Part shown: positions 3,927-49,123 of the stretch, piece after piece
Layout of the letters: every line of letters begins with the position of its first letter
Numbering within the stretch: the stretch's first letter is position 1
From: a virus
Taxonomy: Duplodnaviria > Caudoviricetes
Direction: 5' to 3' (one strand)
DNA: 64,000 nt
IMG/VR virus record: IMGVR_UViG_3300028048_000066
Coordinates: 32,001 to 96,000 of that record
The notes under the pieces: model-generated
What the model was told of the DNA's origin: nothing
Database searches by the model: none
The model's input: the letters and a program-made list of their open reading frames with translations, nothing else
Program-made: the position numbers and the translations under genes

Positions 3927-5516
3927 ATGGCAAAATATTATGTAAAAAGTGCAGACATTAAAGCATATCCTACAGCATTTAGAGATATAGAAAATTCTGG
4001 GGATACACAATCATACTTAAATACAGAGTTCAATGTAACGAATTTGAAGTTTTTAAGTGCTATCAAAGAGAACCAAACATTCTCATATGAAGATGGGGAT
4101 TATTTAATTCTATCTCTTCACGGTTATCTCTTTAAACTTTTAAAGTCAGATGTACCACAAGGCAGAAACTTATATGCATATATTTGTGTACAAGAGAAAG
4201 ATGTGCCAACAACTGGAACATCAATTTACAACAACTACATTCTAGTTGCAGACTCTGGTGGTGGATATTCAACAACACTTGATAATGAAGGATTAAATCA
4301 AGAGTATTATTTCTATGCTTTGGTATTCACAGATGATAGCATTGATACATTATTATCTTCTTCAACTCCTGGAACAAGATATTATGGATTAAAAGTCAGA
4401 GGAGATGATACAAACATAGTCTGTCAACCTCTAAAACTCTCTACAAGCGAGATTAGAAACGAAAGTGATAAATCTATTGATGAAGAGTTACCAATCAACC
4501 AAGAGTTTAATACTTACGAATTAAATGTTGGAGAAGGTGGTATTAACTGTTCTTCAAACATTACATCAAACACAATAAACACACATCAAATAGAGGTTGA
4601 AGGTCCTTTATTCTGTAGTGCTTTAGCAGCAGGTGAGCATAATGGAGAACTTAATATTGTATGTAAAACTATAAATAACACAGACAATATCACTTCAAAC
4701 ACAATTAAAGTTAATAATAAAATCACTGTAAAGAATGAGTATGATTTAGGTAAAGTAGATGCAAACATCGTTAATGCAAGTGTTTCTGTTGAAGCACCAA
4801 GCATTAAAGCAACACAACAATTCACTGGAAATTTATTAGGAAATGTTGTTGGTAATGTTACAGGCAACTTAAATGGTAATGCAACAACAGCATCTAAACT
4901 TTATGCACCAGTAACAATAAATAGCACACCATTTGATGGTTCAAGTGATATTATTGAAACAGATAAATGGGGTAAAGCAAGAAGTATTACAATTAAGGAT
5001 AATTCTGGAACAAATAGTTTTGTAACTTCTGGTGTTGATGGTGGAAGTGCAATCACATTAAAATTACCAGCAACAATTAACGCAGACATAGTTGGTAATG
5101 TAACTGGTAATATTATTGGTAATGTAACTGGTTCTGCATCAAAGGCACTATCATATACAACATCACAGATAAGTGCTGATAATGATACAACTAAAACTTA
5201 TATAATTGGTAAGCAAACAACCAGTGAGAATACAGAAACAAAATATAATGCTAATGTTTATTTCAAAGGCAGTGCACTTTATTGTGGTTCTTTAAATAGC
5301 GGAAATAATACATATACATTACCATCAGAAACTGGTACACTAGCATTAAAAGAAGATATTAACAATGGAAAATTAACAGTAAAAACAATCATTGGTAGTG
5401 ACACACCAACTTCAACTGAGTTTGAAGCAAACCAAAGTGAAAACACAACTGTTGATATTAAGATACCAAAAATAACCTGTGATGGAACAACATTAACAAT
5501 AGTAGTTCCAGTCTAA
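3927..5516 (+). CDS. Tail fibre protein
   Basis: GNLLGNVVGNVTGNLNGNATTASKL and GNVTGNIIGNVTG repeats, FDGSSDI and LPSETGTLA motifs typical of fibre shafts. Confidence 0.7.
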   Translation: MAKYYVKSADIKAYPTAFRDIENSGDTQSYLNTEFNVTNLKFLSAIKENQTFSYEDGDYLILSLHGYLFKLLKSDVPQGRNLYAYICVQEKDVPTTGTSIYNNYILVADSGGGYSTTLDNEGLNQEYYFYALVFTDDSIDTLLSSSTPGTRYYGLKVRGDDTNIVCQPLKLSTSEIRNESDKSIDEELPINQEFNTYELNVGEGGINCSSNITSNTINTHQIEVEGPLFCSALAAGEHNGELNIVCKTINNTDNITSNTIKVNNKITVKNEYDLGKVDANIVNASVSVEAPSIKATQQFTGNLLGNVVGNVTGNLNGNATTASKLYAPVTINSTPFDGSSDIIETDKWGKARSITIKDNSGTNSFVTSGVDGGSAITLKLPATINADIVGNVTGNIIGNVTGSASKALSYTTSQISADNDTTKTYIIGKQTTSENTETKYNANVYFKGSALYCGSLNSGNNTYTLPSETGTLALKEDINNGKLTVKTIIGSDTPTSTEFEANQSENTTVDIKIPKITCDGTTLTIVVPV

Positions 5517-9420: not shown

Positions 9421-11340
9421 ATGGATTCAAGAACACTAGAAAAGAAATTAAAGTTTATAGATAATTATTGTGACACAAACAAGAACCCAGCAACACTTTC
9501 ACAAGTTGATGCAAATGCTAATGTAACTTCAAGAAATATTGCAACAATGTCAACAGAATTATCTAAACCAGACTTTATTGATATTAACAGAGCAATAACA
9601 AAAAAGTATTTATTAGCAAAATATGGTCAAGAATTGTGTGACCAGTTTGACAATGACTTAAAGAACCACATTATTTATAGTCACGATGAGACATCAATTA
9701 TGCCATATTGTGTGGCAATTACTTTATACCCATTCTTATTAGATGGATTAAAGAAGTTAGGTGGCACATCTGGTCCACCAAAACACGCAAGTAGTTTCAT
9801 TGGAGGATTATGCAATTTAATTTTCTTAATTGCTGGTCAATTCGCTGGAGCAGTAGCAGTCCCTGAATTTTTACCATATTTAGACCACTTTTTAAGAAAT
9901 GATTATGGTGATAATTATGTAGACCATTTAGATGAACCAGTATGGCATATTGGGAATAATAATTTCACATTAAGACATAATATTGAAGACTTATTTCAAG
10001 AATTTGTTTACTGTATTAATCAACCAGCAGCAGCGAGAGGTTATCAATCACCATTTATGAATATTGCATATTTTGATGAAGGGTATTTTAATTCTATTTT
10101 TAAAGATTTTATCTTCCCTGATGGAGATGAACCTAATTTAGAAACTACGAAACAACTTCAAAAGATGTATATGAAGTGGTTTAACAAAGAGAGAACAAAA
10201 GATGCTATTACATTCCCAGTTGAAACAATGAATTTATTATGGGATAAAGATACTCATAAATATGTTGATGAAGATATGGCAGATTTCACAGCAGAAATGT
10301 GGGCAGAAGGACATTCATTCTTTATGTATAATTCCGATTCAGCAGACGCTTTATCGTCTTGCTGTAGACTAAAGAATGCTATTGATGAAAATGTATTCTC
10401 ATATACACTTGGTGCAGGTGGTGTAGAAACAGGTTCAAAGAAAGTTATCACACTTAACATTAACAGAATTGTTCAAAATTGGTTTAATGAAGAAGTAAAC
10501 TTGAAATATAAGAGAAATAGAAAAACACTTGCAGAGTATATCACTATAATTGTAGATAGAGTGCATAAATATCTTGAAGCGTGGAATGACCACCTTTGGG
10601 CAATGTATGATGCAGGTTTATTAACAGTTTATTCAGCAGGATTTATTCACCTAGATAAACAATATCTAACTATTGGGTTTAATGGGTTTATAGAAGGTGC
10701 AGAGTTCCTTAAAACAATAGATGAATACATACCAAAAGAATATAGAGGTATGGAAATAAGACCAGATAATGAAGCATACAAACAATATGCAAAAGATATT
10801 TTAGGAACAATTAAAGCAAGAAATTTAGAGCATAGAACACAACATTTGAAGTTCAACACAGAACAAGTTCCAGCAGAAAATGCAGGTGCAAAACTTTATA
10901 ATTGGGACAAGAAAGCAGGTTATGTAGTTCCAGAAGGAAGAAACTTATATAATTCATATTTCTACCCAGTTGAAGATGAGAGTTATGACCCTATTACAAA
11001 GATGTATTTACAAGGAACAAACTTCATAGGAAACCTTGATGGTGGAAGTGCTTACCATTGTAATTTAGATAGTTATTTAAGTAAAGAGCAATATAGAAAG
11101 TTGATGGATATTGCAATAGAGTCTGGATGTTCATATTTCACATTTAACATTCCAAATACAATTTGTAATGATTGTGGAAACATTGACAAGAGATATTTGA
11201 AAGAATGTCCAGTATGTGGGTCTAATAATTTAGATTATGCTACTAGAATAATAGGTTATTTGAAACGAATTAGTAATTTTAGTGAGGTTAGACAAATAGA
11301 AGCATCAAAGAGATATTACGGAAATTTATTAGATGATTAA
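9421..11340 (+). CDS. nrdD: Anaerobic (class III) ribonucleoside-triphosphate reductase
   Basis: IYSHD, PYC, SSCCRL, PAE, C-terminal CxxC..CxxC and YATRIIGYL glycyl-radical motif; no ATP cone. Confidence 0.95.
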   Translation: MDSRTLEKKLKFIDNYCDTNKNPATLSQVDANANVTSRNIATMSTELSKPDFIDINRAITKKYLLAKYGQELCDQFDNDLKNHIIYSHDETSIMPYCVAITLYPFLLDGLKKLGGTSGPPKHASSFIGGLCNLIFLIAGQFAGAVAVPEFLPYLDHFLRNDYGDNYVDHLDEPVWHIGNNNFTLRHNIEDLFQEFVYCINQPAAARGYQSPFMNIAYFDEGYFNSIFKDFIFPDGDEPNLETTKQLQKMYMKWFNKERTKDAITFPVETMNLLWDKDTHKYVDEDMADFTAEMWAEGHSFFMYNSDSADALSSCCRLKNAIDENVFSYTLGAGGVETGSKKVITLNINRIVQNWFNEEVNLKYKRNRKTLAEYITIIVDRVHKYLEAWNDHLWAMYDAGLLTVYSAGFIHLDKQYLTIGFNGFIEGAEFLKTIDEYIPKEYRGMEIRPDNEAYKQYAKDILGTIKARNLEHRTQHLKFNTEQVPAENAGAKLYNWDKKAGYVVPEGRNLYNSYFYPVEDESYDPITKMYLQGTNFIGNLDGGSAYHCNLDSYLSKEQYRKLMDIAIESGCSYFTFNIPNTICNDCGNIDKRYLKECPVCGSNNLDYATRIIGYLKRISNFSEVRQIEASKRYYGNLLDD

Positions 11341-46254: not shown

Positions 46255-46899
46255 ATGGAAAAGGAATATCAAAAAATTGGAAATGTATTTAAGTTTGATG
46301 AAAAGTTCAGAACAATCGTAGGATTAAATGAACCATTTGAAACACTAAAAAATATTATCTGGCAAGGCACAGAGAAAATTGATGGTACTAACATTAGAGT
46401 TCATTGGGATGGACACGATATAGAAATTGCAGGTCATACAGATAAAGCACAAATACCAACAAAACTAAAAGAATATTTAGAGAACTTATTTTTAACAAAA
46501 GAAATGGAATATGTCTTTGAACAAATCTTTGCAGAGAAAGAAGCATATATCTTTGGTGAAGGTTATGGTACTGGTATTCAAAAATATGGTGAAGATTATA
46601 TTGGAGATGGTAAAGTAGGTTTCATTATTTTTGATATTAACATTGGTGGGTTTGACTTAAAGAGGGAAAGTGTAGATGACATTGCTGGTAGATTAGGAAT
46701 ACCTTCTGTACCAGTAGTATTTGAAGGAACACTAGACCAAGCAAAAGAATATGTATTAGAACATCATATGTCAACTCTAAATAATGGTAAGCACGAAATG
46801 GAAGGTTTGGTATTAGTTCCAAAGGGTATTCAATTATATGATAGTAAAAGACATCTTATTAAATGTAAATGTAAATATAGAGATATTATAAAAGGATAA
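46255..46899 (+). CDS. RNA ligase (Rnl2-like nucleotidyltransferase domain)
   Basis: TEKIDGTN (motif I), FGEG, FDI, EGLV, KCK. Confidence 0.8.
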   Translation: MEKEYQKIGNVFKFDEKFRTIVGLNEPFETLKNIIWQGTEKIDGTNIRVHWDGHDIEIAGHTDKAQIPTKLKEYLENLFLTKEMEYVFEQIFAEKEAYIFGEGYGTGIQKYGEDYIGDGKVGFIIFDINIGGFDLKRESVDDIAGRLGIPSVPVVFEGTLDQAKEYVLEHHMSTLNNGKHEMEGLVLVPKGIQLYDSKRHLIKCKCKYRDIIKG

Positions 46900-46917
46900 A
46901 GTAAAGGTGAAAAAAAA

Positions 46918-47148
46918 ATGAAAGCGTATAGAGTAGCATACAGAGACCACGATGATGGATATTATAAAATTACGGAAAATGGCGAAGAATATTATGATAG
47001 TGAAGAAAAAGTTCTTGCAAGTCATCCAGATGCTAAAATACAAGTCTATAAACCTTACATTACTGATAAGGGGAAGTATAGAAAAGAACTAATAGCAGGT
47101 GAAAAGGTGTGGCGTGGTTGGATATATGAAGAAATAGAAATAAAATAA
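46918..47148 (+). CDS. Hypothetical protein
   Basis: AAAGGTG RBS. Confidence 0.6.
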   Translation: MKAYRVAYRDHDDGYYKITENGEEYYDSEEKVLASHPDAKIQVYKPYITDKGKYRKELIAGEKVWRGWIYEEIEIK

Positions 47149-47494: not shown

Positions 47495-47505
47495 TGCTAA
47501 ATTAA
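47495..47505 (+). promoter_or_regulatory. TGCTAAATTAA motif, putative late promoter
   Basis: Recurrent 11-mer, intergenic. Confidence 0.55.
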
Positions 47506-47616
47506 GTGAAACATAAAAGGCAAGATATACACAAGGTTTAGAATACTAACACAAAGTCACCCAAAGAGATAGGACTCAAAGGGTGATTAAAACTATTAGG
47601 ATAGGAGATGAGAGAT

Positions 47617-48021
47617 ATGTCAAACCAAAAAGATTATGGATATTATTCCAAGAAGTTAAACAAACCTTTTGATTCTCTTGATGAGTTGAGAGAAGCAGAA
47701 GAGGAAGAAGAAAGAAAGGAAGCACTAAAGCAACAAGAGATTGAAGATAAGAAATCCCTTGCAAAGAAAGTTGAGGATTCTTATAAGTCCTATATTGAAG
47801 TTCTTAATGCAAGTAAGGAAGAACTCAAGAAGGTTCAAGAAGAATTGGACAAGAAGGTTTCAGACTCTTACAATGAGTATGTAGAAGCAAAGAATGAGTT
47901 TATAGATAAGTATGGTTCTTTCCATATGACCTATAAAGACAAAGAACCTAAAGTAGATACAAGTTATTCAAATCTTCCAAGTGTATTCTCAACTATATTT
48001 GAAGATTTCTTTAAGTTCTAA
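47617..48021 (+). CDS. Coiled-coil phage protein (monocistronic; start 47608 or 47617)
   Basis: YYSKKLNKPFDS..FIDKYGSFH; flanked by an 18-bp imperfect inverted repeat. Confidence 0.7.
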   Translation: MSNQKDYGYYSKKLNKPFDSLDELREAEEEEERKEALKQQEIEDKKSLAKKVEDSYKSYIEVLNASKEELKKVQEELDKKVSDSYNEYVEAKNEFIDKYGSFHMTYKDKEPKVDTSYSNLPSVFSTIFEDFFKF

Positions 48022-48055
48022 AATAAAGTAGCAAATCTAAATCTTGTATATATAG

Positions 48056-48088
48056 AAGTGGTGAAAATAAAAATTTCATCACTTTTTT
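48056..48088 (+). terminator. Rho-independent terminator
   Basis: AAGTGGTGAAA / TTTCATCACTT plus T run. Confidence 0.8.
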
Positions 48089-48098
48089 ATTTTACCCA

Positions 48099-48127
48099 TT
48101 GAAATTATAAAAATATTGTGGTATAAT
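48099..48127 (+). promoter_or_regulatory. sigmaA promoter with extended -10, no downstream ORF
   Basis: TTGAAA-N17-TATAAT, TGn at 48119. Confidence 0.75.
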
Positions 48128-48133
48128 ATATGT

Positions 48134-48318
48134 GACAGGTGTGTGAGTAAAACCTCCGATTTTGTGTGATTATTATGTGATTATTAAATGGTAAGCATAA
48201 ACAAACTACTTACACACCCTTGCTTACCTCAACAATGAATAATAAATAAGACGGTTATAGTCATTTAAATGCTCCAGAGAAAAGGATACTTTGATTTAAT
48301 ATCAGGTGTCCTTTTTTC
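48134..48318 (+). ncRNA. Candidate ~185-nt structured small RNA (pseudoknot-type pairing)
   Basis: Own promoter and terminator (48277-48318); 12-bp helix 48138-48149/48207-48218; 8-bp helix 48190-48197/48221-48228; no RBS-led ORF. Confidence 0.65.
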
Positions 48319-48321
48319 ATA

Positions 48322-48332
48322 TGCTAAATTAA
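48322..48332 (+). promoter_or_regulatory. TGCTAAATTAA motif, putative late promoter
   Basis: 17-bp identity (TGCTAAATTAAATGATT) with 63554. Confidence 0.55.
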
Positions 48333-48334
48333 AT

Positions 48335-48442
48335 GATTGAATGTTGATGGGGAAGTCCTTATCCTTTCAACTTCTTCATTTAACATACATATATAAAGGT
48401 TCTATCTATGTTGAGTAATCCATAGGTAGAACTTTTATTTTT
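48335..48442 (+). ncRNA. Candidate ~105-nt two-hairpin small RNA with CU-rich loop
   Basis: Hairpin 48341-48386 with loop CCUUAUCCUUUCA; 18-bp terminator stem 48393-48438; no RBS-led ORF. Confidence 0.6.
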
Positions 48443-48462
48443 AGAAACTTATTAAAAAGTGC

Positions 48463-48491
48463 TTGACATTTCTATTTAAAAGTAGTATAAT
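48463..48491 (+). promoter_or_regulatory. Strong early sigmaA promoter
   Basis: TTGACA-N17-TATAAT. Confidence 0.85.
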
Positions 48492-48520
48492 AGTATAAGA
48501 AATAGATAGTGAGGTGTACT

Positions 48521-48751
48521 ATGAATCAAAACGAGATTAGAGAAAAGTATTTGGATATGTTGAGTGCAAAATACAATGGAGTTGGCGATTTAGTATTCAG
48601 CGATTTTGATGATATTTTGAATTTAACAGAAGGATATGTAAATGCAGTTATTGATGTTAAATCTGCATTAGGTATTAAAGATAGAATTGATGTTGAATCT
48701 TTCTATAGAGATGCTAGAAAGTTTTTTGTGAGTAAACAAAAGCAATACTAG
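48521..48751 (+). CDS. Hypothetical early protein
   Basis: GAGGTG RBS before ATG 48521. Confidence 0.6.
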   Translation: MNQNEIREKYLDMLSAKYNGVGDLVFSDFDDILNLTEGYVNAVIDVKSALGIKDRIDVESFYRDARKFFVSKQKQY

Positions 48752-48760
48752 AGGTGAATT

Positions 48761-49123
48761 ATGAACAAAGAAATTATTGAAGTAACAACTTATGAGCAAC
48801 TTGGAGAACTTTACGACCATAATGCAATGACTTGGGAAGGTCTTGTTGAAGAAGATTTTCAAGAAGCAATTGATAGGTGTGGTGATGAAGGTGCGAAAGG
48901 ATATTTAACGAAGGGAAAAGTTATGAACGAGATTTGTCATCTTGAAGGTAAATATGCTTATCCAGATGACTTGAATATTTTTTCAGTCTATCCATTTAAG
49001 GGCATTGCTTCTAACTATTGTGCGAGATGGATGGATAACATTATTGATGGTATTGCATATGATGTAGGAGACTACCACCCATTTTATTATCCAGCATCTG
49101 TTATTGAGGTTAGCAATGAGTGA
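48761..49123 (+). CDS. Hypothetical early protein
   Basis: GAGGTG RBS. Confidence 0.6.
   Translation: MNKEIIEVTTYEQLGELYDHNAMTWEGLVEEDFQEAIDRCGDEGAKGYLTKGKVMNEICHLEGKYAYPDDLNIFSVYPFKGIASNYCARWMDNIIDGIAYDVGDYHPFYYPASVIEVSNE

Follow-up and report, generated by a model that had tools for sequence, protein, structure and literature searches.

To our knowledge, virulent phages that infect Gram-positive-type hosts have yielded few regulatory RNAs. Promoter-proximal RNA elements of phages include the nut/boxB sites of lambda, which act with N, and the put RNA of HK022, and these lead to the read-through of terminators in the units that contain them. They combine a conserved loop with a free stem, the boxB hairpin having 5 bp and a loop of 5 nt. 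A second relevant arrangement is the 6S RNA of lambda, a short RNA from the late promoter PR', which is followed approximately 100-200 nt further on by the strong terminator tR', with the late genes located behind tR'.

In Firmicutes, the C-rich-loop sRNAs (RsaE, other Rsa RNAs and the hairpins of RNAIII) have their own promoter and terminator, and carry in a hairpin loop an unpaired pyrimidine motif, UCCC, which is complementary to ribosome-binding sites and pairs through a short seed (PMC2790875). The streptococcal csRNAs (CcnA-E), which have CiaR promoters, display a sequence resembling the 16S rRNA tail, including CCUCC, together with an anti-AUG, and are thought to mask ribosome-binding sites (PMC3091779).

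The RNA unit studied here was located in a window of 64,000 nt, the whole stretch of DNA analysed, which corresponds to bases 32,001-96,000 of a complete phage genome of 148,163 bp with direct terminal repeats (G000). The base composition of this genome is approximately 30% G+C, and every long reading frame is on the + strand. The unit sits inside a gene-free stretch of 500 nt (48022-48521), in which the order is a terminator, a sigma-70-type promoter with an RNA of approximately 185 nt (RNA1), the RNA1 terminator, the late motif, the hairpin, its terminator, a further promoter and the gene at 48521. No tRNA was found there. The features are listed below in window coordinates.

48278 to 48318, + strand: terminator of RNA1, a hairpin and U-run read from the sequence
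48322 to 48336, + strand: late-type promoter motif TGCTAAATTAAATGA, 15 bases, an exact copy, with an extended -10-like TGnTAAATT
48338 to 48389, + strand: conserved hairpin, from folding, covariance model R1 and covariation
48357 to 48369, + strand: 13-nt loop CCUUAUCCUUUCA, the last 12 nt being the family-invariant CUUA(U/G)CCUUUCA
48393 to 48442, + strand: intrinsic terminator, with a stem-loop at 48393-48438 (18 bp plus 2 in a small apical extension) and a U-run to 48442
48463 to 48491, + strand: sigma-70-type promoter (TTGACA, 17 nt, TATAAT; 12/12 consensus matches) serving the gene at 48521

The motif behind the RNA1 terminator, the hairpin (48341-48386), the 13-nt loop and the 18-bp terminator stem (48393-48438) were all found where the initial annotation had placed them, and the unit has no conserved ORF, in line with the small RNA that had been proposed.

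At the sequence level, this locus resembles the RsaE and RNAIII RNAs in being an independent transcription unit with a promoter, no ORF and a terminator, and in presenting an unpaired pyrimidine loop. The phage loop (CUUAKCCUUUCA) differs in lacking the UCCC motif and any Rfam match, and its invariance extends over all 12 bases, further than pairing through a seed would demand. The hairpin is also phage-encoded, behind a phage-specific late motif, and is an mRNA leader in most relatives. It shares with the csRNAs the display of a 16S-tail-like sequence, but it has no CCUCC and matches only the distal CCUUUC of the tail. Its promoter-proximal position, conserved loop, free stem and terminator-containing units recall nut/boxB and put, although the phage hairpin is larger (a 17-bp stem and a 13-nt loop), has neither a boxA nor a known partner protein, is present once per genome despite some 17 late promoters, and in some copies lacks downstream genes on the same strand. 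The short distance from late promoter to strong terminator is reminiscent of the 6S RNA unit, but in this phage the structural genes lie elsewhere with late-motif copies of their own.

The late motif at 48322 begins 4 nt past the U-run of the RNA1 terminator. The 148-kb genome has 17 exact copies of TGCTAAATTAAATGA, none of them on the - strand. Sixteen are closely followed by a purine-rich ribosome-binding site with its start codon, several of them in front of virion or packaging genes (including portal), and only at 48322 does G000 lack a gene behind the motif. The motif is called late because of the genes it precedes, and this is the basis on which late expression is predicted. Its core, TGCTAAATTA, was strand-biased in distant relatives as well, with 19 forward and 3 reverse copies in G002 and 15 and 0 in G003. 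A literature search with the motif string returned unrelated primers only, and searching for late motifs with TTGACA behind a gap of 100-130 gave chance matches within genes only. As one motif copy has a ribosome-binding site immediately after it, transcription probably starts at about the last bases of the motif. The start site of the unit would then lie at approximately 48336-48338, with an RNA of approximately 105 nt, and the RNA1 terminator (48278-48318) should shield this unit from sigma-A-driven transcription upstream.

The main stem of the hairpin is formed by the arms 48341-48356 and 48370-48386 (16 bp, three of them G-U, with a single bulge), beneath which two additional pairs are present (48338-39 with 48388-89). 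The folding energy of the 121-nt stretch was -37.1 kcal/mol (z = -6.05), and none of 200 shuffles equalled it. In folded RNAs starting at or after approximately 48334, as the late motif predicts, the probability of the loop being unpaired was approximately 1.0. When upstream sequence was attached, the best fold paired UCCUUUCA with the upstream GGGGA and GUUGA, and a loop of 8 nt was left. Two mutually exclusive folds are therefore available to 48322-48390, one in which RNA from the late motif shows the loop fully and one in which UCCUUUCA is paired with upstream sequence, so that read-through from RNA1 would yield the hidden form. The loop has the 7-mer UCCUUUC in common with the Bacillus-type (Firmicute-type) 16S rRNA tail. 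The element at 48393-48442 consists of a stable stem-loop directly followed by a U-run, which is the form of an intrinsic (Rho-independent) terminator; a simple terminator scan missed it because the stem has too few G-C pairs for its rule. A 9-nt complement of the loop, AAAGGAUAA (window 46889-46917), overlaps the stop of an RNA ligase-like gene ahead of the ribosome-binding site of the gene at 46918, and is probably a chance occurrence, as the genome holds eight such 9-mers.

A DNA search of the 500-nt intergenic region and of a 10-kb stretch against 50,697 phage records gave no match, and the proteins flanking the unit, searched singly in IMG/VR, had none. The family of the 120-aa neighbour comprised 7 distant IMG/VR loci, and an RNA homologue was nearby in none of them. 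The nearest relatives, at 83% and 82% identity, are present in ENA/Logan only. In both G002 and G003, one copy of the late motif is followed by a hairpin with a wholly different stem and a nearly identical loop (CUUAUCCUUUCA in G002 and CUUAGCCUUUCA in G003), which was found without imposing the loop. A search pattern of motif core, gap and loop matched 30 loci in IMG/VR and 88 in metagenomes, representing 86 distinct hairpins on rumen phage contigs. As the loop pattern was imposed in both of these large searches, loop invariance was checked independently through W, a conserved protein gene upstream; this loop-blind search yielded 9 IMG/VR loci, with the exact loop in 9/9. The loop-unbiased support consists of these nine loci together with G002, G003 and G005, the last having a variant loop (CUUUUCCUUUCA) in which CCUUUCA is retained and the 5' half is changed.

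Covariation of the stem with a conserved loop in relatives was one of the checks that the initial annotation had named, and it was borne out. In a loop-anchored alignment of 22 sequences to which no structure was fitted, 80.5% of the cells were paired and 17/17 pairs had double changes, with the loop fixed; 0 of 500 shuffles reached this level of pairing, and slid controls gave 34-57%. A covariance-model alignment of 76 distinct sequences, which is biased towards the model it was fitted to, was 90.2% paired, with 435 double-change cells compared with 110 in shuffles. G-U and U-G pairs are common in the stem, so the structure is confined to the transcribed strand, which suggests that it acts as RNA. 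The covariance model R1 detected a single copy per genome in G000, G002 and G003. Its match in the window (42.8 bits, E = 1.3e-7) was the only one below E = 1 in the 148-kb genome, and is partly circular since the seed of 22 members includes the window. In 45 of 82 members, the first base of the stem coincides with motif position 13-14, where transcription is presumed to begin.

Rfam 15, searched at E up to 10 over window positions 47500-49000, produced nothing on the hairpin and terminator beyond microRNA-type noise below threshold, a scan of eight relatives' loci at the Rfam gathering threshold gave no match on the hairpin, and no RNA of matching shape was found in Rfam or in the literature searched. 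The hairpin belongs to a well-supported, large and uncatalogued phage RNA family with at least 86 variants and clean covariation, in which a fixed loop like the mRNA-docking tail of the ribosome is found at a set position relative to a phage-specific late promoter. The RNA structure that had been annotated from one sequence is real, conserved and specific to one strand, and the promoter motif ahead of it is genuine. The family also pins down the late promoter motif of the phage and its likely start site.

Two forms of the hairpin were distinguished: it either forms part of an mRNA leader or makes up a small RNA gene by itself. The first form predominates, with the loop preceding a ribosome-binding site and start codon by 40-70 nt. 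The first gene of this leader form is an orphan belonging to one of two or more families, and the operon continues to a gene designated X, the large terminase (TerL) and portal. The genes after the leader, X, and a gene after portal designated Z had no convincing Pfam or PHROG match. About ten members are stand-alone units with a terminator of their own, in at least three architectures.

Separate terminator after the hairpin: the window and L117/L166
Hairpin itself with a U-run, followed by a sigma-70-type promoter and a NADAR-domain gene: L088, L126 and G005
Hairpin nested in an outer terminator stem, with the flanking genes on the other strand: L128, L134, L152 and L115

The proposal of a separate small RNA fits about ten members, the window included, but in most relatives the hairpin is the 5' leader of a late operon. 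In some of the nested units, a -35-like TTGTCA is present 17 nt upstream of TGCTAAATT. The units with hairpin and U-run (L088 2875-3339, L126, and L096, which is G005) always have a metallophosphatase-like gene before them and the promoter and NADAR-domain gene after them. In G000 itself, the packaging operon begins at an ordinary late motif without a hairpin. The stand-alone units and this hairpin-free packaging operon indicate that no downstream gene is needed, and favour a role of the RNA itself. A terminator-like U-tract (at least 6 U in the nine bases after the stem) was present in 17/82 members, and the leader-form hairpin might possibly be released through early termination there.

The initial annotation had proposed that the loop faces GAAAGGA and TAAGG sites, described as dominant in early genes, and shuts down translation of early/middle or host mRNAs late in infection. 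The six ribosome-binding sites quoted in its support do read GAAAGGAG. Among 176 crude gene calls in G000 (98 early/middle and 78 late), on which all of these counts rest, the dominant site was AAGGAG(A). GAAAGG (13/98 early/middle and 12/78 late) and TAAGG (17/98 and 11/78) were minority sites, equally common in late genes. GGAGG was present in 1 of the 176 ribosome-binding sites and in 8 copies on the entire + strand. The complementarity of the loop to GAAAGG sites is real and is accompanied by some covariation, but over all G000 start regions the pairing was no better than that of shuffled loops. An extended antisense target was ruled out, as no complement of the loop of 10 nt or more was present in G000 and long complements in relatives' loci showed no excess (35 compared with 33 in the reversed-pattern control). 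The gene W, directly upstream of the hairpin, is not a conserved target, and the phage bS21 genes, with sites of the ordinary GAGGUGA type, do not stand out as targets.

Conservation of unusual sites drew attention to a small number of late genes. The orthologues of X, Y and Z (Z of approximately 155 aa, Y in the lineage with G in the loop) retain (U)GAAAGG sites without GGAG across phages with 40-47% protein identity; TerL and portal retain AAGGAG throughout. The two candidates in G000 both lie outside the window.

131,726 to 133,720 of the G000 genome: gene X, 664 aa, before the terminase block, site UUGAAAGGAG
Right after portal in G000, start region at 139,220 of the genome: gene Z, 153 aa, site AAUGAAAGGAG

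The loop pairs with these two sites over 8-9 bp, ranking 5th (X) and 4th (Z) of 176 by duplex energy in G000, and with each relative's own loop X was in the top 2 of the local genes in 14/17 loci and Z in 5/5; these rank statistics are post hoc, as the motif had drawn attention to both genes. The site of Z in G003 (GAGAGGCUAA) pairs over 10 bp with UUAGCCUUUC, extending into the half of the loop that is unlike 16S; the site of Z in G002 is of the ordinary AGGAG type. The base after GAAAGG tends to follow the variable base of the loop (C 14, A 11 and U 5 in phages with G in the loop; A 10, G 2, U 3 and C 1 in those with U), which rests on three or four independent sites rather than 30, since the G-loop phages are one lineage. 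A C in this position is not a partner of the true 16S tail. Among the X sites of G-loop phages, 7/12 carry A opposite the loop G. Pairing between loop and target is short, mostly 7-9 bp, and GAAAGG sites also pair with the real 16S tail, so their conservation may be unrelated to the hairpin.

X orthologues have an invariant C-x-C...C-K-H pattern, a SWIM-like zinc finger with a weak Pfam match, and X of G000 is fused to, or extended by, approximately 360 N-terminal residues. The predicted structure of X was poor (pLDDT 56), and that of Z (pLDDT 89) had no structural match.

The best reading of these data, to which we assign a probability of roughly 0.4, is that the unit is transcribed late and that, in the resulting RNA, the open loop pairs with ribosome-binding sites of the GAAAGG type. 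This short RNA, of approximately 105 nt, would run from the foot of the hairpin to its own terminator. The function of the hairpin would be to display the fixed 12-nt pyrimidine loop, which resembles the last bases of 16S rRNA, and the loop would most likely base-pair with the unusual (U)GAAAGG sites that lack the usual GGAG core. This pairing might tune, and probably damp, the translation of a few late genes, with X and Z as the best candidate targets in G000. In most relatives, where the mRNA of the late packaging operon begins with it, the hairpin may act from the leader or after release by early termination. The best conserved candidate targets are late genes beside terminase and portal, and a shut-off of early/middle or host translation is therefore not indicated. 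The mechanism originally put forward was partly supported: a pyrimidine loop facing GAAAGG sites appears plausible in kind, and the details were unsupported. Pairing of the loop with such sites leaves its invariant 5' half (CUUA) unexplained. The family lends itself to a direct test of whether a phage can tune the choice of translation start sites by RNA.

The strongest alternative, possible though on balance unlikely, is that the loop is a protein-binding site and that the element acts in cis on its own transcript, by antitermination or by control of first-gene translation. Invariance of 12/12 loop bases above a free stem is typical of protein operators, and the hairpin lies exactly at the transcript start and in most phages heads the long operon to TerL and portal. 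In G000, a bound protein would let late transcription past the 48393-48442 terminator into the genes from 48521. The consensus promoter at 48463-48491 means, however, that these genes have a promoter of their own. A terminator followed by same-strand genes is found after the hairpin in G000, L117, L088, L126 and G005, and the U-tract right after the stem in 17/82 members would fit such a role, but the nested hairpins of L128, L134, L152 and L115 have only opposite-strand genes downstream and thus nothing to read into. Also against such a role, the hairpin accompanies just one of the approximately 17 late promoters in each genome. No co-varying candidate binding protein and no boxA-like partner was seen, and no boxA-like conserved flank was present in the hairpin alignments A2 and A3.

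A rather improbable explanation is that the hairpin mimics the 16S rRNA 3' tail and binds a tail-binding factor such as bS21, of host or phage, thereby shifting the choice of late ribosome-binding sites. It draws on UCCUUUC being common to the loop and the Firmicute-type 16S tail, although the CCUCC core of the true tail is missing from the loop. Genes for bS21 (PF01165) were identified as follows.

L128:4367-4603, + strand: bS21 gene
L134:1709-1942, - strand: bS21 gene
L152:2961-3197, - strand: bS21 gene
G002:C1:223164-223322: bS21 gene
G006:C1:141290-141421: bS21 gene

In L128, L134 and L152, the stand-alone hairpin is tail-to-tail with the phage bS21 gene (E = 1.8e-12 to 9.4e-9), and an S21-like gene is located 0.9 kb upstream in L117/L166. 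bS21 contacts the 16S tail and helps to hold it (PMC9976891), and a late role has been proposed for the phage protein (PMC9723584). This adjacency and the contact with the tail keep a protein-bound tail mimic open as a reading. The adjacency is limited to one or two lineages; the bS21 gene is absent from G000, none was found in G003, G004 or G005, and in G002 the gene and the hairpin are far apart. It is similarly doubtful that the mimic captures a small-subunit component such as bS21 late in infection, or competes with the tail for GAAAGG-type sites. If tail mimicry were true, a group of rumen phages would reprogramme the reading of ribosome-binding sites by means of one 50-nt RNA, either free-standing or in the leader of the packaging operon. 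The bS21 genes' own sites are strong GAGGUGA types, unlike those of most phage genes here.

It is very improbable that the hairpin is only a 5'-terminal stabiliser, in which a stem at the first transcribed base blocks 5'-end-dependent decay and the stand-alone copies are rearrangement leftovers. The stem does begin at the presumed start site in most members and most copies are mRNA leaders, but a stabiliser has no need of a fixed 12-nt loop, the stand-alone copies keep stem and loop intact in several lineages and architectures, and a single late transcript per genome has the hairpin. A small protein-coding gene (29 codons, 48341-48430) or two chance hairpins is extremely improbable, as the ATG-led frame open across the window hairpin, which the ATG near the 5' end of relatives mostly shares relative to the loop, has no upstream ribosome-binding site, the best frame is open in only 52/84 members, the changes are compensatory pairs and not codon-like, and chance is excluded by the fold z of -6 and the model E of 1.3e-7. 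A leader peptide was likewise rejected, since no reading frame is conserved across the hairpin. The probability left after the readings named here belongs to other roles.

Several further features were observed on the relatives' contigs. In L117 (approximately 4810-5420, from -600 to 0 relative to the late motif), and likewise in L166, an RNA island is located upstream of the stand-alone hairpin. Its components are a TATAAT promoter, a structured segment in which CCUCC occurs twice, a tRNA-Met (5236-5310) and a terminator. The terminator loop reads CCUCC in L117 and CCUUC in L166. The arrangement is reminiscent of RNA1 and the hairpin unit in tandem in the window. The contig of L128, which is phage-like and also has a stand-alone hairpin and a bS21 gene, includes a c-di-GMP-I riboswitch at 9583-9657 (57.6 bits, above threshold). 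The TerL orthologues of L063, L071, L084, L104 and others start with TTG ATG, and in place of the late motif a conserved promoter of the extended -10 type, TTGTATAATATATAG, lies just ahead of them. In-frame TGA codons were present in conserved genes of G002 (IMGVR_UViG_3300033463_000007; for example G002:C1:13884-14651), L075 and L082, with 4 in the X orthologue, which suggests that some of these phages, or their hosts, may decode TGA as a sense codon.
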